Source of the DNA: a virus
Lineage: Duplodnaviria > Caudoviricetes
DNA length: 64,000 nt
Virus record (IMG/VR): IMGVR_UViG_3300037400_003286
Reading direction: 5' to 3' (one strand)
Every line of letters starts with the position of its first letter. Positions within the stretch are counted from its first letter, which is position 1. Positions 418-63,071 of the stretch are shown here, piece after piece. The position numbers and the translations under genes were made by a program. The notes under the pieces were generated by a model, which had not been told where the DNA came from, ran no database searches, and worked only from the letters and a program-made list of their open reading frames with translations.

Positions 418-3400
418 AGAAAGAAATCAACCAGGTTATACAGGATAAGACATTATCCAAGCAAGAGAAAATCCAGAAGATTAAGGATATTTACAATTCC
501 GCAAATTCTGGTGGTGTGACTGGTGCTGATACAAAAGATGCTGGTGGTGCTGGTAATTCTGCCTCTGGTGGAAATAGTGGCAACGGACAAAATGATGATC
601 AGAATCAGAATGGTCAGGGACAAGGCCAGGGACAGAATCAAGGTAACGGTAATGGTCAGCAAGGTCAGAACGGTCAGGGACAAAACGGTCAAGGTCAAGG
701 ACAGAATAATAACGGACAACAGCAAGGCCAGAATGGTCAAGGACAGGGACAGAATGGACAGAACAATAACAATGGTGTCCATAATGTAAGCCATAATCAG
801 TTGAAGAATCAGGGTGTTGGTCAGAATGGTCAACAGAATGGTAATCAGCAAAACGGAAACGGATCACAAGGAAATCATGGTAATCAGTCTGGTCAGCAAG
901 GTCAGAATGGTTCAAATGGTGGACAAAATGGTCAGCAAGGTAATCAATCTGGCAATCAAGGATCAAACGGTGGTTCTCAAAGCGGACAGCAAGGAAACCA
1001 GTCTGGTAATCAACAGAATGGCGGAGGATCTCAAGGATCTCAAGGTAATCAGCAAAACGGACAAGGTGGTTCACAGTCTCAAGGTCAGCAAGGTGGACAG
1101 CAGGGACAGTCTGGTAATCAGAATGGTCAAGGCGGTGGTTCACAAGGACAGCAGGGACAAGGAAGCCAACAGCAAGGTCAAGGACAAGGTAATTCACAAA
1201 ACCAGAATCAAAACGGTCAGCAAGGACAGCAGAACCAACAGCAACAAGGTTCACAAGGAAATGCTTCACAGCTTGATGAATATTCTATAGGATATATTCT
1301 TGGTAAGAAATATGCCGAGGAAATGTACAAGCATAGAGGTCTTGCGCCTGTTATGAGAGACCAGGTTGAGCTTCCAGATAATCTTGATCCTATGAAGATT
1401 CTCGAATCATTGAATGAATCTATCGATGATGATATTGCAGCTTTGCTCGATGATACAAGTATAGATGATGATGAAAGAACAAGCAAGATTCATGATCTGT
1501 TCAGAGATACAATAAAAGGTGGCGGAAGCAAACAACAGGAACCAGAAGAGAAAGAAATCTATGTTCCAGATGATGTTATTGTCATGAGAAACGGAACAGT
1601 AGATCCTGACAATCTTCTTAGTGGTGCTCACGTTATTGATGAAAAAATAGGTGATGAAATCCGTAAGGAGATGGGAGTTACTCCGAAGGATCCAGATTGG
1701 GGTATGAGTGATGATGAGGATGCTATGATTAAAGAAGCATTCCCTATCATTGGTGATATTTTCAAACATGCTCCACAGGATGACAAGGAACTTGTGTCTG
1801 CTGCTGAAACAATGAAGAATAAAATTGAAGGTCGTATCAGAAAGAGTCGTGAAGGTATTATTGACTGGAAGAAAGCACTCCAGGACTTTATTTCTGAGAG
1901 ATCTCATACATATGAGAAAGGCCCACTCCGTAAGAATGTATATCAGAGAACTGGTATAGGTCTTAGACATAGAGTAAAGGCTTTCAACGATTTTAACAAG
2001 TGTGTTGTATATATAGATACATCTGGTTCTGTAAACAACGACATGACACAGCTTATTCCTATTATGACTGGTGAAGTTGGAAAAATCATGCAGGACTGTC
2101 ATTTCAATACGGTTGATATTCATCTGTTTGATGATGTTGTATATAATGAACACTTTGATGTAGATTCATATACCGTACAGGATGAAAACTGGGGTATTGA
2201 AGGTGCTGATGACGGTGGTGGTACAAACATCCATGAAGTTTACAAACATATCATCAAGAACTATATGAATGATGGTGAGCTTAATTATGATATTAATGCT
2301 ATCATTATCATCACTGACGTTTCTGGTATGCAGTATTCTGGAAATGTTAAACCATTCGCTGCTAAATTAGGTCAGCATACACTTGAGAGAATGCTTTACG
2401 TAATCTATAACGATTATGCTAATATGTATCTCAAGGAAGTTACAGCAGAAATGGATCAACTTGTTTCAAAGTATTCACAACACTATGAAATTTCAGTAGA
2501 AGCATTTAGAAAACAAATATTAAGTGAATCAATGAATATTAACCAAAAGAGAATGAATATGAACGAGGCTCTTGGAGGTTTGAAGAAGATTCAGCAAAAG
2601 CAACAGCAAGCTCAGATCGATCCATCTGAAAGAACAGAAGATGAAAAGAATGAGCGTCTGAGAAAAGCCGAAATTCAGGGTGCTCGTGCTGTCGGTCAGC
2701 TTGAGAAGGTTCTTCCTGAACTTGTTGCTAATCTGGAAAAGTTCTTCCCTAACTGTCGTATGGTAAAGGAATATACAGCTGTAATGGCTACTCCTAATAC
2801 ATATTATGTTACAGAGGAAGCTCATGTTATTCTTCATATGGATGTTGATGGATCTAACATCAATAATCTCTGCGAAGCTTGTTCCGTAATGACTATCGAT
2901 CAGCTTATCGGTAATGTAACACTGAAGAATGCCAGAACATTCAGAGGATTCCCCGTTGGATTCCCTAAGGAAATAAGTGGTGATTTGGTGATGTTTAATC
3001 TTGTCAATTTGGGCGGATTTGACAATGCTCCACAGGCAGTTACTGGACGTGTTTCAATCAATGTATGTTATCCAATGAACAAACGTATATCAAAGGATGC
3101 TCAGAATAAATATGTTACATCATTGATGAAGACTCTTACACCAATAGGTGAACTCGAAAATAAACCAAAACATGTATTTACAATGACTAAGAGAAATAAC
3201 GAAAGTGTAGCTAATATCATTAAGAACAGAATAGCTCTAAGTGAGTCATTTATTAATGAAATGGCTATGCCTAAGAAACTTAGTCCTGTTTTCCCAAGAC
3301 GTTCAAAACCTCAAGCTGGAAGCAAGGTTTCCGAAGATGATTATATAGCATCAACTGAACTATACAAGAAGAATAGAAATGTATTCTTCGATGTGATTGA

Positions 3401-5549
3401 TCCTCTTCTTAACATTGGTTGGGGTGATATTAGTGATGATGATGTTACCGTAATCAATGATGTTAGCCAGATTAGAATTGCAGCTAAGGATTCTAAGTAT
3501 TTTGAGAAGAATAAGGACAACGCAAATCAGCTTGGATATGCTGGTGTAAGAATTTTCACCACATCAGATAATATTATTAGTGCAGTTTATGCACAATCTA
3601 AGAAGGGTGCTAAACCAACTATGGTTTATCTAAATGATGATAACGGTGATGCTATCACAGATCCTGAAAAGATTAAGGGCGAAGTTGATAAGCGTTACGA
3701 TATTTTCAAGCAGACATATGATTATCTGAAGAATGTCGGCGTTGAGCCAGGAAACCTTCCAGAGAAATTCTCAGTAATGCCAGGAAAGGGACAAAATGCT
3801 ACAGTTGAAGCTGCTGCTCTTCACGTTCTTTATTACCTGATGGCTATGCTTAATGGTACGTCTGGTGCTATTGACTATAAGTTCAAGGTTGATTCTATTG
3901 TTGCGGATCAATTTAAGGATGGTGCTTCTGACAATCAAGAAATATTCGACAGAATTCTCAATTACATTTATCCTAATGCACAGATGGGTAATGACGGAGT
4001 TTCTGCAAGAGTTTATACATCAAGAGGACGTTTGACCGTGAACTTCAACCAGAAGGAAAAGAACCAACCAAACAGCAAGGTTAATTTCAACATGGCATAT
4101 TTCAATTCTGATATCGGTCATAATGTATTTGAATGCTTCTCTGATAATTTCTTGAAAGCTCTTCTTATCGGATCTTCATTAAGAGGTGTTGATAATGAGC
4201 CAAGATATAGTGTAGATGAGATTATTGATGCTGATAGAGATACACTTCTTGAAATGGTAAATCAGGTTAAGAATGTTGAACTTATCAAGACATCTTTGAA
4301 GTCACTTTCATTCAAGGGTAAGAACATGGATGATAAGTACGATCACTCTAATCCATTCGATGTTCTTATGATGTTCCCTGACAAGTGTGAGAAGGAATAT
4401 GATATCCGTGTTGATGTTAATGATGAGGCTCTTAAACTTGTTGGTAAGAAGGTAACTCGTGATATATACAAGTCTGGTATGTATAACGACATCAAGAACT
4501 ACAAGTACAATCGTGAGACTGGAGAAAGAGAGCGTGCTGACATTGAAGGCACAGCATCATTAAAGAAGAAAAAGGAAAATCAGCAATTATCTGATGAGTT
4601 TACTTCTTTCGACTCTGTTGTTAATTATATTGTTGATAACAAAGATATATTTACAGACGCAAAACAGGCTATAGAAAATGCTATTGCAGAATATACTGCA
4701 AACCATAGCTGGTATTCTAACAAGGAGCTTCCTGTTAAATTTAGTCAAAGTGTTGACAAAATTGTTGATTTCTCTAATCTTATTAAATCTAAGATTATCA
4801 ACGATCCAGAAATTTCTAAGAATAAGGCATCAGTTATTGATCTTATGGTTGAATCAATGGGTGAAGTAATAGGACTTATAGAGAAAATTATGATGCCAGA
4901 AGAGGGTGAGGATTATAAGACTATTATTGATAACGGTGAAAAGCTTGTTAAAGAAACAATGAGACTTTCTGAGCTTTATGCTAACCTTACTGGAGAATCT
5001 GGTGATTGGGTTAATGCACAAGGTAAGAAGGTAAGCTACCAGGATGTTGTATCAAAGAAGGTTAATAAGCTTGGTGAGAGAAACCGCAGCAAGAAAGCAG
5101 CTACATCAACTACTCAGGATACTGGTGATTCAGCTAAGGAAGAGCAGATTAAGGCTAAATATGCACAGGTTATCAACGATTTGTCTGGCGACATCGTTAA
5201 GGTAAACGATGCGGTTAAGAATATTGACTTTGCTGGTGCTTCTGAGGATGCAGTGGATCATTTCTCAACTAAGGAAGACATGATGAGACGTATTGCTAAT
5301 CAGCTTAACAAAGTTATTGAGATTGCTAACACAATCAATACAAACGGTTCTGTTGACTGGATGAATACAACACTTCCTCTGTTGAACGATGTATTCTATA
5401 CTTGCAGTTCTGTAATCAATGCAAACAATGAGGAGAATATGACAGACTTCCTTGTTGACCTGGATGGTGCTTGCCGTGCTGTTACAAAGGCTGTTAGAGG
5501 TTTCGCTACGCAACAGACTTACAAACAGGCTGGTGCAGTTACAGCATAA
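402..5549 (+). CDS. 1715-aa protein with a Q/N/G low-complexity region and a vWA-like (DUF2201 C-terminal) domain; probable capsid-internal protein
   Basis: IDWKKALQDFI, YIDTSGSV (MIDAS DxSxS), GGGTN, IIITD; repeated LNES/MNEA/NNES/INEM motifs. Confidence 0.7.
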   Translation: MRYDVKKEINQVIQDKTLSKQEKIQKIKDIYNSANSGGVTGADTKDAGGAGNSASGGNSGNGQNDDQNQNGQGQGQGQNQGNGNGQQGQNGQGQNGQGQGQNNNGQQQGQNGQGQGQNGQNNNNGVHNVSHNQLKNQGVGQNGQQNGNQQNGNGSQGNHGNQSGQQGQNGSNGGQNGQQGNQSGNQGSNGGSQSGQQGNQSGNQQNGGGSQGSQGNQQNGQGGSQSQGQQGGQQGQSGNQNGQGGGSQGQQGQGSQQQGQGQGNSQNQNQNGQQGQQNQQQQGSQGNASQLDEYSIGYILGKKYAEEMYKHRGLAPVMRDQVELPDNLDPMKILESLNESIDDDIAALLDDTSIDDDERTSKIHDLFRDTIKGGGSKQQEPEEKEIYVPDDVIVMRNGTVDPDNLLSGAHVIDEKIGDEIRKEMGVTPKDPDWGMSDDEDAMIKEAFPIIGDIFKHAPQDDKELVSAAETMKNKIEGRIRKSREGIIDWKKALQDFISERSHTYEKGPLRKNVYQRTGIGLRHRVKAFNDFNKCVVYIDTSGSVNNDMTQLIPIMTGEVGKIMQDCHFNTVDIHLFDDVVYNEHFDVDSYTVQDENWGIEGADDGGGTNIHEVYKHIIKNYMNDGELNYDINAIIIITDVSGMQYSGNVKPFAAKLGQHTLERMLYVIYNDYANMYLKEVTAEMDQLVSKYSQHYEISVEAFRKQILSESMNINQKRMNMNEALGGLKKIQQKQQQAQIDPSERTEDEKNERLRKAEIQGARAVGQLEKVLPELVANLEKFFPNCRMVKEYTAVMATPNTYYVTEEAHVILHMDVDGSNINNLCEACSVMTIDQLIGNVTLKNARTFRGFPVGFPKEISGDLVMFNLVNLGGFDNAPQAVTGRVSINVCYPMNKRISKDAQNKYVTSLMKTLTPIGELENKPKHVFTMTKRNNESVANIIKNRIALSESFINEMAMPKKLSPVFPRRSKPQAGSKVSEDDYIASTELYKKNRNVFFDVIDPLLNIGWGDISDDDVTVINDVSQIRIAAKDSKYFEKNKDNANQLGYAGVRIFTTSDNIISAVYAQSKKGAKPTMVYLNDDNGDAITDPEKIKGEVDKRYDIFKQTYDYLKNVGVEPGNLPEKFSVMPGKGQNATVEAAALHVLYYLMAMLNGTSGAIDYKFKVDSIVADQFKDGASDNQEIFDRILNYIYPNAQMGNDGVSARVYTSRGRLTVNFNQKEKNQPNSKVNFNMAYFNSDIGHNVFECFSDNFLKALLIGSSLRGVDNEPRYSVDEIIDADRDTLLEMVNQVKNVELIKTSLKSLSFKGKNMDDKYDHSNPFDVLMMFPDKCEKEYDIRVDVNDEALKLVGKKVTRDIYKSGMYNDIKNYKYNRETGERERADIEGTASLKKKKENQQLSDEFTSFDSVVNYIVDNKDIFTDAKQAIENAIAEYTANHSWYSNKELPVKFSQSVDKIVDFSNLIKSKIINDPEISKNKASVIDLMVESMGEVIGLIEKIMMPEEGEDYKTIIDNGEKLVKETMRLSELYANLTGESGDWVNAQGKKVSYQDVVSKKVNKLGERNRSKKAATSTTQDTGDSAKEEQIKAKYAQVINDLSGDIVKVNDAVKNIDFAGASEDAVDHFSTKEDMMRRIANQLNKVIEIANTINTNGSVDWMNTTLPLLNDVFYTCSSVINANNEENMTDFLVDLDGACRAVTKAVRGFATQQTYKQAGAVTA
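505..1270 (+). repeat. Gln/Asn/Gly/Ser low-complexity coding repeat (GQNGQ, QQGNQSG units)
   Basis: About 250 codons composed almost entirely of G, Q, N and S. Confidence 0.9.
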
Positions 5550-5569
5550 TATTACAAACAATATATCAG

Positions 5570-5599
5570 AAGAGAGAATCGAATGGTTCTCTCTTTTTT
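5570..5599 (+). terminator. Intrinsic terminator
   Basis: agagagaatc-gaat-ggttctctct followed by a T-run. Confidence 0.8.
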
Positions 5600-5618
5600 A
5601 TTTGTCTCGTTAAATTCA

Positions 5619-5626
5619 GATAAATA
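5619..5626 (+). promoter_or_regulatory. Putative late promoter GATAAATA (analogue of T4 TATAAATA)
   Basis: The same octamer lies shortly upstream of many genes, mostly structural: 7742-7749(-), 21496, 27912-27919(-), 27950, 32750, 34683, 45978-45985(-), 48951, 52341, 54404-54411(-), 54776, 54818, 58504, 62099. Confidence 0.7.
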
Positions 5627-5650
5627 GTTAAATGAGTTATCAAAAATAGA

Positions 5651-7153
5651 ATGATTATAAAACCTACATATACAACAGAATCAATAGAAGAACAGCATAT
5701 TGAGGATTTCGATCAGATTATACTTGAAAGTCTTGTATCAAGATATGGTTCCGATATTGTATTCCAGTCTATAAACGAATCTCATTCCTATTATGGATCT
5801 GGCGGAAGGTTTGACCGTACAGGAGGATCCAGGGTAAGCGGTGTAAGTGGATTGCTTCAGTCTTTACCAAGTCTAGCTATAACGACACTTATATGTTGGC
5901 CAGCAGTTCTTCTTGCTGGTCTTGGTGCAATATCACACAGAATGAGAGAAAAATATGAAGACAAGAATTCATGGCTTAACAGATTGAACCCAAGATTCTG
6001 GGTTGATTATCTTGCTACTCCACATAAGAGTAAGTCATCATCTTCATCATCTGGTAAGGAAAAAGAAGGATGGTTCAAGAGATTATCCAAAACCGTTCTT
6101 GGTGGTGCTGCTGGAGCAGGAGCTGTTGCTGGAGCAGCAGCGTTAGCAAAGAATTCAAGTACAGCAGATTCAAGCATAGATCCAGAAGAAGCAAAGAATA
6201 TAGCAATGAATGCTATCTTTGTACCATACTGGGTTACTCTTTCAAATGGTGAGATATTGAGGGTAAGAGCAGATTCTGAGGAAAATGCAAAAACTATGGC
6301 TAATATGATTATAGCATATACAACAAAACCATGCTATAATAAATTGAATGAAAAGATCGCACAAGGTTGTCCTAAATACAAGTTCTATTTTGATGACGGT
6401 GAAATGTGCTATTGGTCAGCACCTACACAAAAGCAGGCTTATAATGAGGCTCTTGATACAAGAAAGGAACTTTGTAAGACAATGAATGAAGTAATGTCTT
6501 CATCTGTTGCACTTGATAATCTTGATGAGCCGAAAGTTGATGGAAAGGTTGAAGTAATCAGAGGAGAAAAGATAGAAGTTCCACAACAGAACAGATTCCT
6601 TAATGTTACTACAGTACAGCCTCAACGTCCAGAGGAACAGACTTTGAAACCTCTCCCGAAACCAATGTATAAGTATGGAAGTTTTTCACCATATAAGGTG
6701 ACATATGCAAATTTCATGCTGAATATCCCAGGGTATCAGGAAGGTGAAGCAATGGAAATAGCTAAGGATTTCAATTCAAGGACAGCAAGAGATACAATCA
6801 GGGATATATATTACAAGATGGATAAGCATTACGATCTTTATAAGGTTGCAATGAAAGATGGTGACATCTATGTAATACCAGGAAAAGGAATCAATGAAGT
6901 GAGTAAGGTTGCTGTTGATTTGTATAATGCAAAGGTTGAATCGATAAAATCAGTATTACAGGATTCAGCACTTGAGGAATATGAAGACTTTCTTACAGAT
7001 TTCGGAGAAAGAATAAATTCCGTAAGAGATGTCAAGTTGATCGATCCAGCAGAAGGAAAAGATTATACAATAAAGAAAGGTGATGAAGCGTCTCTTGTAA
7101 AGATAACAGATAAGGAAGAAAAGAATAAGAGATATCCTAATTTCAAACTATAA
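5651..7153 (+). CDS. Hypothetical virion-internal protein with hydrophobic segments
   Basis: 500 aa; ILES and INES near the N-terminus; hydrophobic LAITTLICWPAVLLAGLGAI and GGAAGAGAVAGAAALA; late promoter upstream. Confidence 0.55.
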   Translation: MIIKPTYTTESIEEQHIEDFDQIILESLVSRYGSDIVFQSINESHSYYGSGGRFDRTGGSRVSGVSGLLQSLPSLAITTLICWPAVLLAGLGAISHRMREKYEDKNSWLNRLNPRFWVDYLATPHKSKSSSSSSGKEKEGWFKRLSKTVLGGAAGAGAVAGAAALAKNSSTADSSIDPEEAKNIAMNAIFVPYWVTLSNGEILRVRADSEENAKTMANMIIAYTTKPCYNKLNEKIAQGCPKYKFYFDDGEMCYWSAPTQKQAYNEALDTRKELCKTMNEVMSSSVALDNLDEPKVDGKVEVIRGEKIEVPQQNRFLNVTTVQPQRPEEQTLKPLPKPMYKYGSFSPYKVTYANFMLNIPGYQEGEAMEIAKDFNSRTARDTIRDIYYKMDKHYDLYKVAMKDGDIYVIPGKGINEVSKVAVDLYNAKVESIKSVLQDSALEEYEDFLTDFGERINSVRDVKLIDPAEGKDYTIKKGDEASLVKITDKEEKNKRYPNFKL

Positions 7154-58522: not shown

Positions 58523-59926
58523 ATGAATTCACAATCATTGATTACATATAAGTTAAAATATAATGCAAGTGATGAAGCTAACGCTTTTATTCTGAAATGT
58601 ATGAAACAATACAGTTCATTACTTCATTATGGTTATAACCGTGTGGCTGATGGTTGGTCCGCAAAGCATATAAAAGATGCAATGAAAACTCAACTTAATA
58701 ATGTTGAGTTGATGGATAGTCATATTGTTTCTTGTGCTCAACAGCAGGCAACTGGAATACATGAGCAAAAAACTAAAACAAATCCTGGATATAAAATTAT
58801 ATTCGGTGGAAAGAAAAATTATATTCGTAGATGTAAAGGATTGATTAGCAAAGAAGAATATCAATATAATAGAATATCACCTTTATTATCTATGGGTGAA
58901 GCTAATCAGAAAGGTAACAGGAAATTCAAGATCAATCAGGATTTACATTCTATAACGTTCCAGATTAACAGAAATAATCATTATAATCTTGAACTTAAAG
59001 GTATATATGGTAAACGTGAAAAGACGTTATCAAAACTATATGAGTTACAGGAAAAGAAAGATATTCCTATAACATATAGTATTGACAGAGATTATATATA
59101 TGTTTCTTTCGATGAATCAAAAATTAAACAGTATAAACGTAAAAGGTTTGTTAAAAATCGTGTAATGGCTATAGATATGAATCCTAATTATATTGGTTGG
59201 TCTATAGTTGACTGGAATGGTGAAGGAGAAAATGATTTTAGAATAGTTAAAACAGGTGTATTCTCTATTGAAAAAATAAACAAACTTGATGAGCAGTTAA
59301 GAAAATATTCAGGAACAGATTCAACAGATTCAATAAAAATTTACTTGACAAATAAACGTACACATGAAACATATCAGATTTCAAAGAAACTGATTGATAC
59401 TTGTCTTTATTATCAGTGTGAATCTTTTTGTATAGAAGATTTGAATATTAAACATAAAGACGCTGAACGAGGAAAGAAATACAATAGACTTGTTAATAAC
59501 TGCTGGTGCAGGAATAAACTTGAACTTAATTTGCAGAAACGATGCAATATGTTTGATATAAAGTTCATTAAAGTACAACCAGATTTTAGTTCTTTTGTTG
59601 GAAATTTCATTTTTCGTTCTCTTAATTTGCCAGACATGGTTCTTGCATCAATAGAGATAGGAAGACGTGGATATGAATTCAATTTACAGTATATAGAAAA
59701 AATAAAAGAAATAAAACGTAATATTATATTTCCAGATTTAGGTGTATACAAAAACTTCTATGCCAAGTCGTTGGAAGAATTTGGTATAGAAGATGACACT
59801 GGTCTGAAGGATATATATTATGTTCTAAAAAAGTCTAAAACCAGATATAGACTTTCTCTGGAGCAAACTGAAACAGAGTTTTCAAGGTGTTTTTCAAAGA
59901 GATCTCTAATAACTAAAAAATATTAA
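58523..59926 (+). CDS. tnpB: TnpB/Cas12f-like RNA-guided RuvC nuclease (IS200/IS605/IS607 type), no transposase nearby
   Basis: RuvC-I MAIDMNPNYIG, RuvC-II CIEDLNI, RuvC-III PDMVLASIEIGRRG; IFGGKK and GEANQKGNRKF motifs; no CxxC Zn ribbon. Confidence 0.8.
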   Translation: MNSQSLITYKLKYNASDEANAFILKCMKQYSSLLHYGYNRVADGWSAKHIKDAMKTQLNNVELMDSHIVSCAQQQATGIHEQKTKTNPGYKIIFGGKKNYIRRCKGLISKEEYQYNRISPLLSMGEANQKGNRKFKINQDLHSITFQINRNNHYNLELKGIYGKREKTLSKLYELQEKKDIPITYSIDRDYIYVSFDESKIKQYKRKRFVKNRVMAIDMNPNYIGWSIVDWNGEGENDFRIVKTGVFSIEKINKLDEQLRKYSGTDSTDSIKIYLTNKRTHETYQISKKLIDTCLYYQCESFCIEDLNIKHKDAERGKKYNRLVNNCWCRNKLELNLQKRCNMFDIKFIKVQPDFSSFVGNFIFRSLNLPDMVLASIEIGRRGYEFNLQYIEKIKEIKRNIIFPDLGVYKNFYAKSLEEFGIEDDTGLKDIYYVLKKSKTRYRLSLEQTETEFSRCFSKRSLITKKY

Positions 59927-59947: not shown

Positions 59948-60130
59948 ATGATTAATAAAAAACACAATCTGAAAGATAACACAATCCAAATATTTACTGG
60001 TATGTGTAACGAAACATATGATGGCGAAATCGTTCAGCATCTTGATTGCATTGATGACAACCTGTATTATGATATTGATGATATTGTAATGTAGATTGAT
60101 GTTCCAGATGTAAATAAAGTTAAAATATGA
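59948..60130 (+). pseudogene. Small gene remnant after tnpB, with an in-frame TAG at 60092
   Basis: MINKKH...DIVM*IDVPDVNKVKI, ending in an ATGA overlap with the next gene. Confidence 0.45.
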
Positions 60131-60453
60131 CACAAGATGAAGCATTAAAATGGTTTAAAGAAAAAGCCATCGATATAATAGAATCTTATCATGGAATGTT
60201 CAGTACATTTTATTATGTATATGAAGATAATGATGGATATGGAAATTATGATCCTTACACTTTCATAATAGAATATCAGCCATATAGCTGTCATGTTGAT
60301 ACTGAAGATGGATGTAACGATTGTCCATATAAAACAATACATGGAAACTGTGGAGAAAAATCATTGTATATATGTGAAGATGGAACAATATATTATGATG
60401 AGAAATACTATAATGATACTGAGTTTGAGGATCTTTTGAATCAATTTTTTTAA
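60127..60453 (+). CDS. Hypothetical protein
   Basis: 108-aa ORF, Cys-containing. Confidence 0.6.
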   Translation: MTQDEALKWFKEKAIDIIESYHGMFSTFYYVYEDNDGYGNYDPYTFIIEYQPYSCHVDTEDGCNDCPYKTIHGNCGEKSLYICEDGTIYYDEKYYNDTEFEDLLNQFF

Positions 60454-60458
60454 TTATA

Positions 60459-60731
60459 ATGGCAAAGAAAGCAAAGACCATGATACCAGAGAATCTGGTA
60501 AAGATGCTGATAAATACATACACAGAGTGCATTGTAACAGACTCTGAAGGTGAACTTGACTTCGAGGAAACGATCTATAACTTCTCGAAAAAGATAGTTA
60601 ATGACATGGGGAAATCTCAACAGAAATCTGTTTTCGGTATTGTGTTTGATCGATATGATGATTGCTATGACTACCTTGAGAATCACGTACCATCACTTAG
60701 ACACGAGCTTGAGATGTTCCTTTTCGAATAA
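60459..60731 (+). CDS. Hypothetical protein
   Basis: 90-aa ORF in the operon. Confidence 0.6.
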   Translation: MAKKAKTMIPENLVKMLINTYTECIVTDSEGELDFEETIYNFSKKIVNDMGKSQQKSVFGIVFDRYDDCYDYLENHVPSLRHELEMFLFE

Positions 60732-60743
60732 ACAATTACGATA

Positions 60744-61895
60744 ATGAAGATAAAGACAGAAGATATATTCAATTCAAACGGTAATATAAAGAAGGATCTT
60801 ATGTTTACCAACATGTTCGGACTTGTTCCAAGCACATACGCATGTGCGCTTGATAACGATGACAAGAAGTTCGACATGTATAAGATAGACAAGAAGTTTA
60901 TTCTTTCTCTTTATCCTAATGCTAAGGTTTTCCAGATTTCTGGAAGACACATTGATGATGAAGTCTCATGTGTTACTGAGGAAAGGCAGAAGGATCAGGA
61001 ACCAGTATATATAAGGGATGGCGTATATGCACTTTCCCAGTTCAGGAATTCTGAGACAACAATTATACTTGATTATATACCAGCAATCATAACATTTGAT
61101 AAGACAACAGTTGAATGTATCTATGATCTTGATTCTGATGTCGATATAGAGAAGTTCATTGATGATTTCATATCAAAGCTTCCTATGGTTGATGATAAGG
61201 AGGATGATGAATATCCTAATGTAAGCCTTGTTTCGTTCAGTAACGATGCTGGATATTATACGGTTGATGCTGAGATCAATTCTGTTACCATTGATATAGA
61301 TAAGAATTACAACGATGACTTCAAGCCAATATATGAAGACATTGTTGATTTCTTGGGTTCAGAAGAAAGGAAATCTGGATTGATCATATTGAATGGTGAA
61401 CCAGGAACAGGAAAGTCATATCTAATCAGACACATTATTAAGAATATAGAGAACAACTATGTTCTTATTCCACCTTCTATGGCAGAGAATCTGGCTTCTC
61501 CAGAGTTCACATCTTTCCTTATGGGCAATACTGATTCCGTATTCATACTTGAGGATTGTGAGACGGTTATCAAAGACAGAAACATCATGGATGTTACGTC
61601 TGCTGTTTCGTCTATACTTAATATGAGTGACGGTATTATGTCTGATATTTTCAACGGTAAGTTCATATGTACGTTCAATGCAGATATGTCAACGATAGAT
61701 GATGCTATTCTTAGAAAAGGTAGATGCTATGCTAAATATACATTCGGTAAGCTTGACAAGGAAAAGGCAAAGGTTCTGCTTAACGAGAAAGGAATAGAAC
61801 TTGACGAATACGAGGATATGACTCTTGCTGACATATATCATTACAATGACAAGAATGTCGAGAGTATAAGCAAGAAGAAAAGAATAGGATTTTAA
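60744..61895 (+). CDS. AAA+ ATPase
   Basis: GEPGTGKS, FILEDCE, ILNMSDG, ICTFN, AILRKGR, C-terminal IGF. Confidence 0.88.
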   Translation: MKIKTEDIFNSNGNIKKDLMFTNMFGLVPSTYACALDNDDKKFDMYKIDKKFILSLYPNAKVFQISGRHIDDEVSCVTEERQKDQEPVYIRDGVYALSQFRNSETTIILDYIPAIITFDKTTVECIYDLDSDVDIEKFIDDFISKLPMVDDKEDDEYPNVSLVSFSNDAGYYTVDAEINSVTIDIDKNYNDDFKPIYEDIVDFLGSEERKSGLIILNGEPGTGKSYLIRHIIKNIENNYVLIPPSMAENLASPEFTSFLMGNTDSVFILEDCETVIKDRNIMDVTSAVSSILNMSDGIMSDIFNGKFICTFNADMSTIDDAILRKGRCYAKYTFGKLDKEKAKVLLNEKGIELDEYEDMTLADIYHYNDKNVESISKKKRIGF

Positions 61896-61917: not shown

Positions 61918-61950
61918 GAGAGGGAACTTGAACAAGGTTCCCTCTCTTTA
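61918..61950 (+). terminator. Intrinsic terminator
   Basis: gagagggaactt-gaac-aaggttccctctc followed by T residues. Confidence 0.8.
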
Positions 61951-62129
61951 ATTGATTGTGATCGGTCCTAATTAAAAGTTGGTAGCGAAATCCACTTGTC
62001 TTGTTTCCAACGCACAAACCAATGTATTTCTAAACTTTCTATGATATTTATTTTCGATTTCAAAATAAAAGTTGTATATTTGCACTGCAATTATTGTAGA
62101 TAAATAGTATAGAAAAGAACGTAAGAATT

Positions 62130-62390
62130 CAGTAGGAGAACAGGCCCCTGAGTAGCGACTGGTGAGTAACATGCAAAAGATGCTAGCTCTAAGTTGCACC
62201 GAAGACCATACGCAAAGACGGTGGACAGACCAGTGAAACGGGTGTGTATAGAAGTACGAAATGGTGGTACGATCGGCGACGAGCACTACGGGGATGAGCA
62301 ACAACGGCGTAAGACGATTGATTTGACCATAGTCAATCTTTTCCTCTAAGGATGCAGAAGCCTCATCTCGCAGATTTTCTCCTCTTTTAA
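62130..62390 (+). ncRNA. Candidate structured non-coding RNA (~260 nt), family not recognised
   Basis: GC-rich intergenic island behind both promoter types; closing helix AGGAGAA/TTCTCCT and several internal helices. Confidence 0.6.
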
Positions 62391-62408
62391 ATATAATGTA
62401 ATGACATA

Positions 62409-63071
62409 ATGCCGTACATAACGAAGACAATTAAGGAAGCAAGGAAGGAATTCAAGAAGTCAAACAAAGTCTATAAGCTTTGTTATGTAGACTCTATTCC
62501 ACGAACAACTTTCGGATACAGGCCAGAAATCAAGGAGAAATACAAGTTCCTTGAAGGATTGTCTTATGAGGAATATAAGAACGTGTCATGGAAATATCCT
62601 GAATATCGTATGGAGGATCTTCCAAACCCAGACTACATTCCTGGAGAACATGAGCTTTATGCTTACTTTACTCCTATTGAATTATCTAAACAGTGGGGTG
62701 ATGACTGGAATGATGCGCCATATGAATACAACGCGGAGATTCCTTATGATGATGTTATTCTTGAAACAGAGGAAAAGGATGGCTTGAAGTGGGCTACAAA
62801 GATCGATCATTATGACATAATTCAGATTCCTTTTGCTGTCAAATCGTTCTATTATAAATTACCGAAGGATTATAGCTATGGTGGAAATTCTCCATTCTCT
62901 GTTGATATGATCAACTCTGGTGCTGTTGCATGGATATATGATCCAGCGGATGGTAAGATGGAGAATATGACATCAATACAGGCAGGATGCACGATATATG
63001 AGTTCCTACAGAAACTCAAGAGAATAGAGAAGTGTAATCCTGAATATCAAAAATACGAAGATGAAGACTAA
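62409..63071 (+). CDS. Hypothetical protein
   Basis: 220 aa; QWGDDWNDAPYEYNA motif. Confidence 0.65.
   Translation: MPYITKTIKEARKEFKKSNKVYKLCYVDSIPRTTFGYRPEIKEKYKFLEGLSYEEYKNVSWKYPEYRMEDLPNPDYIPGEHELYAYFTPIELSKQWGDDWNDAPYEYNAEIPYDDVILETEEKDGLKWATKIDHYDIIQIPFAVKSFYYKLPKDYSYGGNSPFSVDMINSGAVAWIYDPADGKMENMTSIQAGCTIYEFLQKLKRIEKCNPEYQKYEDED

Follow-up and report, generated by a model that had tools for sequence, protein, structure and literature searches.

The intergenic island at 62134-62383 on the + strand of the viral DNA analysed here (a stretch of 64,000 nt, referred to as the window) resembles a riboswitch-type or protein-binding leader but is in no described RNA family. We give an even chance to the reading that it is a selectively maintained, structured + strand RNA of about 250 nt, which forms the 5' leader of the p220 operon and is gated by P1, the helix closing its core. 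The sequence data establish the island, its promoters and its homologue, as well as the conserved helices, their strand and the dispensability of the element, whereas action in cis, the role of P1 and of the U-run behind it, and any ligand are what we infer for this RNA. A stand-alone RNA of about 290 nt is the main rival reading, and an origin primer and a gene remnant are minor rivals.

Base composition and layout of the locus

The window as a whole is AT-rich, with a GC content of 35%. Sliding GC values reach 0.46-0.475 at 62100-62399 compared with about 0.35 in the surroundings, and the GC content of the core (62134-62383) is 0.49, compared with 0.13-0.29 in the 18 other intergenic gaps and 0.36 in coding DNA. 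The island is the sole GC-rich spot in the window that lies outside any ORF, which bears out the markedly GC-richer intergenic island reported in a preliminary description of this DNA. Its + strand consists of 58% purine, with a GC skew of +0.26 and an AT skew of +0.35.

The island is flanked upstream by an AAA-type ATPase gene (60744-61895; Pfam AAA, E 1.9e-7), which also has weak helicase-loader or helicase-like matches, and downstream by p220 (62409-63071, + strand), which encodes a widespread phage protein of 220 aa and is the first gene after the RNA. The gap between the two genes is 513 nt and contains, in this order, a terminator-like hairpin, two further hairpins (hp1 and hp2), an AT-rich stretch, the 13-mer TTGTATATTTGCA, AGATAAATAGT and the GC-rich block. 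The terminator-like hairpin (61918-61946, + strand) follows the ATPase gene and has a 12-bp stem and a T-run.

Homologues and distribution of the element

The homologue set comprised at least nine loci from one metagenome scan, and among the loci listed there were two independent RNA sequences, that of the window and that of L021. The latter is a 181-kb contig from a rumen metagenome; over 1 kb at the RNA locus it does not differ from L020, and its p220 and ATPase are 59% and 60% identical to those of the window. Its island (2712-2976, 52% GC) is found at the same locus, with the same layout of promoter, RNA and p220, and a different hairpin (2525-2548) occupies the place equivalent to that of the terminator-like hairpin. 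The two RNAs are 46% identical over 274 aligned columns, with no net length change over about 220 nt. The coordinate offset between them is constant (59416-59417) at the anchors from ACAGGC (62140) through GAAGC (62357), the exceptions being small indels that offset one another, located in the P2 domain and near P6a. In L021 the ATPase gene is separated from the RNA cassette by an extra ORF of 166 aa without any family match (2009-2509), which is absent from the window.

Two other loci are more closely related to the window. In L018, where p220 is 98% identical, the contig begins inside the RNA and the 91 bases upstream are identical to those of the window. In L019 the p220 and ATPase genes are 80% and 83% identical to those of the window and both are whole, and the spacer between them (2917-3001) is only 83 nt: a cassette of about 440 nt with the terminator, the promoter and most of the RNA is missing, its 5' edge being the hairpin at 61918-61946. 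Just the last ~35 nt of the element (tctcgcatattttctcctc...) are kept, including the 3' strand of P1, and the 3' flank UUUUAAAUA, which is kept in the window and L021, has only a looser AU-rich counterpart in L019. Given that the window and the more distantly related L021 both carry the RNA, and that the P1 3' strand is left in L019, the simplest history is that the lineage of L019 lost about 440 nt by deletion. As judged from this sequence, the element is dispensable, since L019 lost it and retained p220; any regulation by the RNA would thus not be essential. The length of the ATPase-p220 spacer thus differs among related phages (83, 513 and 991 nt).

More remote relatives of p220 (33-49% identity) have other genes upstream and no island. 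Among GenBank phages no DNA match was found for the island or the surrounding 3.9 kb, and no tblastn match for p220. In IMG/VR an exact 26-mer gave 0 matches, the conserved 17-mer ACAGGCNCCNGAGTAGC gave 27 matches, all of them in coding-like DNA without the neighbouring blocks, and the pattern of hp2 plus promoter gave one chance match, inside a gene; the p220 relatives found there are at most 49% identical and none has the island, and the ATPase has no relatives there. All 10 matches of a 21-mer pattern in GTDB genomes were by chance. No paralogues of the island were found in the window, and an nhmmer search with a two-sequence profile over 0.5 Mb of loci returned no further homologue.

Predicted fold and constant blocks

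The structured core is predicted to form about 11 helices with a multi-branch junction that is closed by P1. All the helices listed in the preliminary description are present in the window at their positions, and P1, P2, CACCG/CGGTG, GATTGATT/AGTCAATC and GGGATGAG/CTCATCTC are also kept in L021. P1 (62134-40/62377-83; L021 2718-24/2962-69) shows two double changes (A-U to G-C and G-C to U-G) with the register kept, and its length is 17 bp in L021 and 7 bp plus a weak A/U extension in the window. Register is likewise kept in P2a (62172-76/62194-98; L021 2756-60/2778-82), with two double and two single changes, and in P3 (62147-49/62240-42; L021 2731-33/2823-25), where U-G is replaced by A-U. 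P5 (62264-68/62285-89; L021 2847-51/2868-72) carries three double and two single changes and P5a (62273-75/62280-82; L021 2856-58/2863-65) two double changes, so that these two helices together account for five double changes in a kept register; the loop of P5a is GCGA in the window and GAGA in L021, a GNRA loop in both phages.

Other helices are less regular. P6 (62291-98/62362-69; L021 2875-81/2946-52) has three double changes, one single change and two broken pairs and needs a 1-nt indel. It encloses P6a (62316-23/62331-38), which has 8 bp in each RNA with entirely different sequences, and P6b (62342-45/62349-52). The latter is found in both RNAs in shifted positions, as are P2 (62158-63/62229-34) and P2b (62199-01/62219-21); to be matched between the window and L021, P2, P2b, P6a and P6b have to be shifted by 1-3 nt. 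A further helix, P4, is predicted at 62246-49/62254-57. The pairing CCCC..GTAG/CTACGGGG, which had been proposed to compete with another helix and thus to suggest a switch, exists in the window but keeps only 5/8 pairs in L021 (hand count) and clashes with the better conserved P5, and the case for switching is therefore weak.

Identity between the two RNAs is clustered in short blocks, most of which are located between the variable helices. The longest is ACAGGCYCCWGAGUAGC (62140-56), which overlaps the 5' strand of P3, and the others are GUGAA (62233-37), GAAAKGG (62258-64), CAACA (62299-303), RAAGC (62357-61) and CGCARAUUU (62369-77). Constant blocks placed mostly between helices of variable sequence are consistent with a tertiary fold or with a binding pocket of the kind seen in riboswitch aptamers or protein-binding leaders.

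The two hairpins hp1 and hp2 follow the terminator and precede the promoter, and both are located upstream of the point where transcription is expected to begin. Hairpin hp1 (61948-61975, + strand) has the stem TTAATT/AATTAA and a loop with a conserved TCGGTC; in L021 (2555-2577) the stem is wholly different (GACAA/TTGTC) and the loop motif is kept. Hairpin hp2 (61976-61997, + strand) has the stem AAGT(T)GG/CCACTT and the conserved loop TAGCGAAAT; in L021 (2579-2598) two of its G-C pairs are replaced by G-U, which pair on the + strand only. GGTAGCGAAAT is a single-copy motif in the window, and likewise in L020/L021. These hairpins could be sites to which a protein binds, or they could belong to a read-through transcript. 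The sequence GUAGCGA/GUAGCAA is also found inside the RNA (62153-59), and the hp2 loop is complementary to the 3' part of the RNA over 8 nt in L021 only.

Tests for a conserved structure

Folding energies of the single sequences were compared with those of shuffled sequences. The window RNA was no better than its shuffles (z +0.87 for the + strand and +0.59 for the - strand) and the L021 RNA gave a weak signal (z -1.08). Given that the window RNA alone does not fold better than shuffles, the support for a structure comes from the comparison with the homologue. The conserved fold is accordingly judged from two independent sequences among the loci listed, which are too few for a covariation statistic of the R-scape type.

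The RNAalifold consensus energy was compared with that of 300 column shuffles preserving the identity pattern. With a structure-blind MAFFT alignment the z-score was -2.7 (1/300) for the + strand and -2.2 for the reverse complement, and with a near-ungapped manual alignment, in which a few of the gaps were placed knowing the helices, it was -3.7 (0/300) and -1.7, respectively. The number of position-matched helices in the window and L021 exceeded that in all 60 dinucleotide shuffles of L021 (z 4.3, 2.8 and 4.0 at tolerances of 0, 1 and 2 nt), although this null is generous because the shuffling also destroys the shared sequence. In the MAFFT alignment 14 pairs were changed on both sides and still paired, compared with 1-4 when the 3' partners were slid by 1-3 columns; the unslid count is favoured by the fact that the structure was drawn from the window.

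Enforcing the common model cost little energy in L021 (-82.0 kcal/mol compared with an MFE of -85.1, i.e. within about 3) and more in the window (-54.8 kcal/mol compared with -63.7, about 9 above). The overlap of base-pair probabilities between the two RNAs was weak (z 1.4-1.7). At least 14 G-U pairs (hand count) are distributed over P1, P2a, P3, P5, P6 and hp2. Since each G-U pair would turn into an A-C mismatch in the complementary strand, and given the weaker z-scores of the minus strand, the structure points to the + strand. The proposal that the island encodes a functional phage RNA is strengthened by these data, in that GC content, length, sequence blocks and, with compensatory changes, most of the helices listed earlier are all retained in a homologue that has diverged in sequence and occupies the same locus.

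Coding potential of the island

As previously described, no ORF of 60 aa or more is present on the + strand of the island, the longest being 51 aa with a TTG start. On the minus strand a 152-aa ORF with a TTG start (61972-62430) spans the island and crosses the promoter. It was rejected as a gene, given that the promoter lies inside it and that it has no family match, and it reads as junk; such ORFs are produced by a purine-rich + strand. At 62399-62411 AUGACAUAAUG forms a mini-ORF of two codons, the stop of which overlaps the ATG of p220 (UAAUG); as L021 does not share this mini-ORF, it is probably due to chance.

It is improbable, in our estimation, that the island has no RNA function and is instead what remains of an acquired, GC-richer gene in decay, or else a small coding gene, with the constant blocks as leftovers. 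One + frame does lack stops over a run of codons (91 in L021, 59 in the window) that is in the same register across the core, mismatches are slightly more frequent at the third position of this frame (0.65 compared with 0.53 and 0.49), and the loss of the element in L019 would fit a remnant as well. However, the codon periodicity is not significant (chi-square p 0.29), no tblastx match was found, no start or stop is shared, and the open frame of the window lacks an ATG. The high GC content has also been retained in both phages at 46% identity, and the compensatory changes and the strand asymmetry fit an RNA.

The p220 gene and its neighbours

In a large protein collection p220 has 490 relatives with identities from 90% downward, P0002-P0016 being at 74-90%, and it contains the invariant acidic residues D98, D99, D102 and D114. 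No match was found for it in Pfam, PHROG, NCBIfam or the PDB sequences, and the ESM Atlas gave unnamed viral clusters only. The AlphaFold model (pLDDT 93, pTM 0.86) has no relative among the PDB structures (Foldseek best E 0.55; VIA best Z 2.9), and on the basis of this model p220 may represent a new fold. Two ORFs that are absent from the window were seen in L019: one of 427 aa downstream of p220 (3683-4966) with a match to the OB-fold domain PHA02142 (E 1e-5), and one of 309 aa (5469-6398), also downstream of p220, whose beginning matches the final part of an intein splicing domain (E 4e-6).

Comparison with known RNA classes

No Rfam family matched the whole window at the gathering score, and at E <=10 only chance rows (e.g. 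Baculoviridae_NAE, SSRC38 and the patAB leader) were obtained for the island and its L021 homologue, so that the novelty proposed for this RNA survived its comparison with Rfam. ARAGORN detected no tRNA or tmRNA.

The closest comparators are riboswitch aptamers (e.g. those of the cobalamin, lysine and M-box classes) and further long, structured leaders at the 5' end of bacterial and phage operons, such as ribosomal-protein leaders. Like these, the island lies between a promoter (62072, 62098) and the ATG of the first gene (62409) with no terminator between, its P1 closes a multi-helix junction, constant nucleotides are found among helices that seem to vary in a compensatory manner, and hairpins are capped by GNRA loops. 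Unlike them, its core (about 250 nt, about 11 helices) is larger than most aptamers, it has no recognisable expression platform, just P1 followed by a U-run, and two examples of it are present among the loci listed. Given that the downstream genes have no assigned function, no ligand can be guessed for the RNA.

ROOL and GOLLD measure roughly 580 and 800 nt. Both are large ornate RNAs frequent in phages and prophages, and ROOL was first obtained from rumen metagenomes (PMC5737381; bioRxiv 10.1101/2024.12.08.627333). The island shares with them the association with rumen phages, a GC content higher than that of its surroundings and a large number of helices, but it differs in its length, in its position as an operon leader and in matching neither Rfam model. 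Membership in these classes was rejected on the absence of an Rfam match and because the core of 250 nt is far smaller.

Three further candidates were discarded. The 5' block GAGRACAGGCYCCWGAGUAGC resembles GAGGAAAGUCCGGGCUCCAUAGGGCA of E. coli M1 (RNase P RNA), and together with a CAGAAGCC-like 3' block and a P1 joining both ends it gives the island a superficial likeness to RNase P RNA. No RNase P model scored at E <=10 on either homologue, the would-be 3' strand of P4 is used by P6, and there is neither a P2/P3 nor a recognisable specificity domain. A group I intron was rejected because the ATPase gene has a stop codon of its own and is followed by a terminator, the two flanking genes are intact in L019, where the element is missing, and no Rfam match was found. 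A 16S-like GGUGAGUAACA motif in the window is not conserved in L021 and was treated as chance.

The TnpB-like ORF and the omega-RNA option

The preliminary description had also raised the option of an omega-RNA-like scaffold, on account of a tnpB gene about 2 kb upstream. An ORF of 467 aa (58523-59926) does end 2.2 kb before the island, but its identity as TnpB is weak: it has no Pfam or PHROG match and its one NCBIfam match, TIGR01766 (TnpB-related), is below threshold (E 0.0048; 17.4 bits compared with a cut-off of 32). No relatives of it were found in the analysed stretches of L019, L020 and L021, and it could be a phage-specific insertion. The ORF at 60127-60453 likewise has no relative in these three loci.

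An orphan or domesticated omega-RNA (reRNA) scaffold of TnpB tied to this ORF is considered extremely improbable. In common with the omega-RNAs of IS200/IS605 and IS607, the island would be a structured RNA of a few hundred nt in a genome that has a TnpB-like ORF, and the sub-cut-off TIGR01766 match is the evidence in favour. In contrast to these RNAs, it lies away from the 3' end of tnpB, has promoters of its own and is without a variable guide. It is separated from the stop of the 467-aa ORF (59926) by the ORFs 60127-60453, 60459-60731 and 60744-61895 and the terminator, and, where a guide would be variable, its 3' flank has largely the same sequence in the phages compared. The island shows no sequence similarity to the rest of the window and has no Rfam match, although omega-RNAs are diverse and many are outside Rfam. 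The homologue in L021 also speaks against the option, given that it has no TnpB-like neighbour and that no relative of the 467-aa ORF is present in the 2.7 kb upstream of it.

Promoters and transcription

The 13-mer TTGTATATTTGCA (62072-62084, + strand), with an expected transcription start near 62088-62092, occurs in seven exact copies in the window (7797, 15444, 20472, 34618(-), 48595(-), 52181(-) and 62072), every one of which is ahead of a gene, and the observed match count was reached by 0/100 shuffles. It contains TAnnTTTG, the Bacteroidota-type -7 promoter box. The late-promoter-like AGATAAATAGT (62098-62108, + strand) fits the AGATAAATA motif, also written AGATAAATA(G/A)T, which precedes about 10 genes of the window, many of them structural-looking, and which from its sequence looks like a T4-type late promoter. 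Given that both motifs recur before genes of the window, the tandem early and late promoters of the preliminary description are a fair description of this genome. They are not general: AGATAAATAGT sits in a 36-nt stretch missing from L021, where only the first promoter is kept (GTATATTTGCA at 2694-2704), so that the tandem arrangement is phage-specific. In L021 the TATATTTG box of this promoter ends about 5 nt before the outermost predicted pair of P1, and transcription should therefore start at or very near P1.

At the other end of the core, P1 is followed at once by a U-run and then by an AU-rich spacer that extends to the ATG of p220 over about 25 nt (62384-62408, + strand). The U-run is CUUUU in the window, with only 4 U, and AUUUUUU in L021. 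Neither a terminator hairpin nor a promoter motif of p220's own was found between the RNA and the start codon. Given that no separate terminator follows the RNA, the transcript would continue into p220 and the following genes, which makes the RNA the 5' leader of the operon. The expected start near P1 and the U-run and spacer directly behind P1 together favour a leader that is gated by P1.

According to the leader model, transcription would proceed from the standard phage promoter and, in this genome, also from the late promoter. The junction would then fold, possibly stabilised by a ligand or by a phage or host protein, and P1 would form right before the U-run. A closed P1 would end transcription and release a discrete RNA of about 290 nt, or would alter the stability or translation of the p220 message, and an open P1 would let transcription read through. 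A more specific version, in which the RNA belongs to a new class of large ligand- or protein-sensing RNAs or small ribozymes specific to giant rumen phages, with the junction and its invariant nucleotide blocks as a binding or catalytic pocket and P1 formation gating an early/late operon, is regarded as doubtful.

Much of the same evidence bears on the main rival, a trans-acting or processed stable non-coding RNA of about 290 nt that stands alone and is ended or trimmed by P1 and the U-run, its place ahead of p220 being incidental and p220 being expressed by read-through. We consider this possible, though somewhat unlikely. The short distance between the TATATTTG box and P1 in L021, with a P1 of 17 bp directly before AUUUUUU, would suit such an RNA, as would its own early-type and late promoters, the conserved nucleotide blocks, which are seen in ribozymes or RNP RNAs, and the fact that most p220 relatives have no such RNA upstream. 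Against it, there is no classical terminator hairpin and the U-run of the window has just 4 U, and p220, with no separate promoter motif between the RNA and its start codon, must be transcribed together with the RNA.

A transcript that starts at a strong promoter and is rich in purine (58%) could also be an origin-type primer, that is, a folded purine-rich RNA that forms a persistent RNA-DNA hybrid and primes replication, for which ColE1 RNA II and the T4 oriF/oriG transcripts are precedents. The island adjoins a P-loop ATPase with weak helicase-loader or helicase-like matches, and origins of this type in T4-like phages are individually dispensable. No unwinding element or skew change was seen at the locus, however, and the compensatory changes in the helices argue for a folded free RNA, which leaves the primer reading very improbable.

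Implications

The leader reading is based on two independent sequences among the loci listed, and the element is dispensable in one lineage. To our knowledge, RNAs have hardly been explored in the giant phages of gut and rumen. If the reading is true, the island would represent a new class of structured RNA, given that it has no Rfam family and no match in the searched public phage, IMG/VR and GTDB species-genome collections. Such structured-RNA classes have often proved to be riboswitches or ribozymes. The natural deletion mutant L019, together with a reporter design that combines the promoter, the RNA and p220, makes the function of this RNA directly testable.
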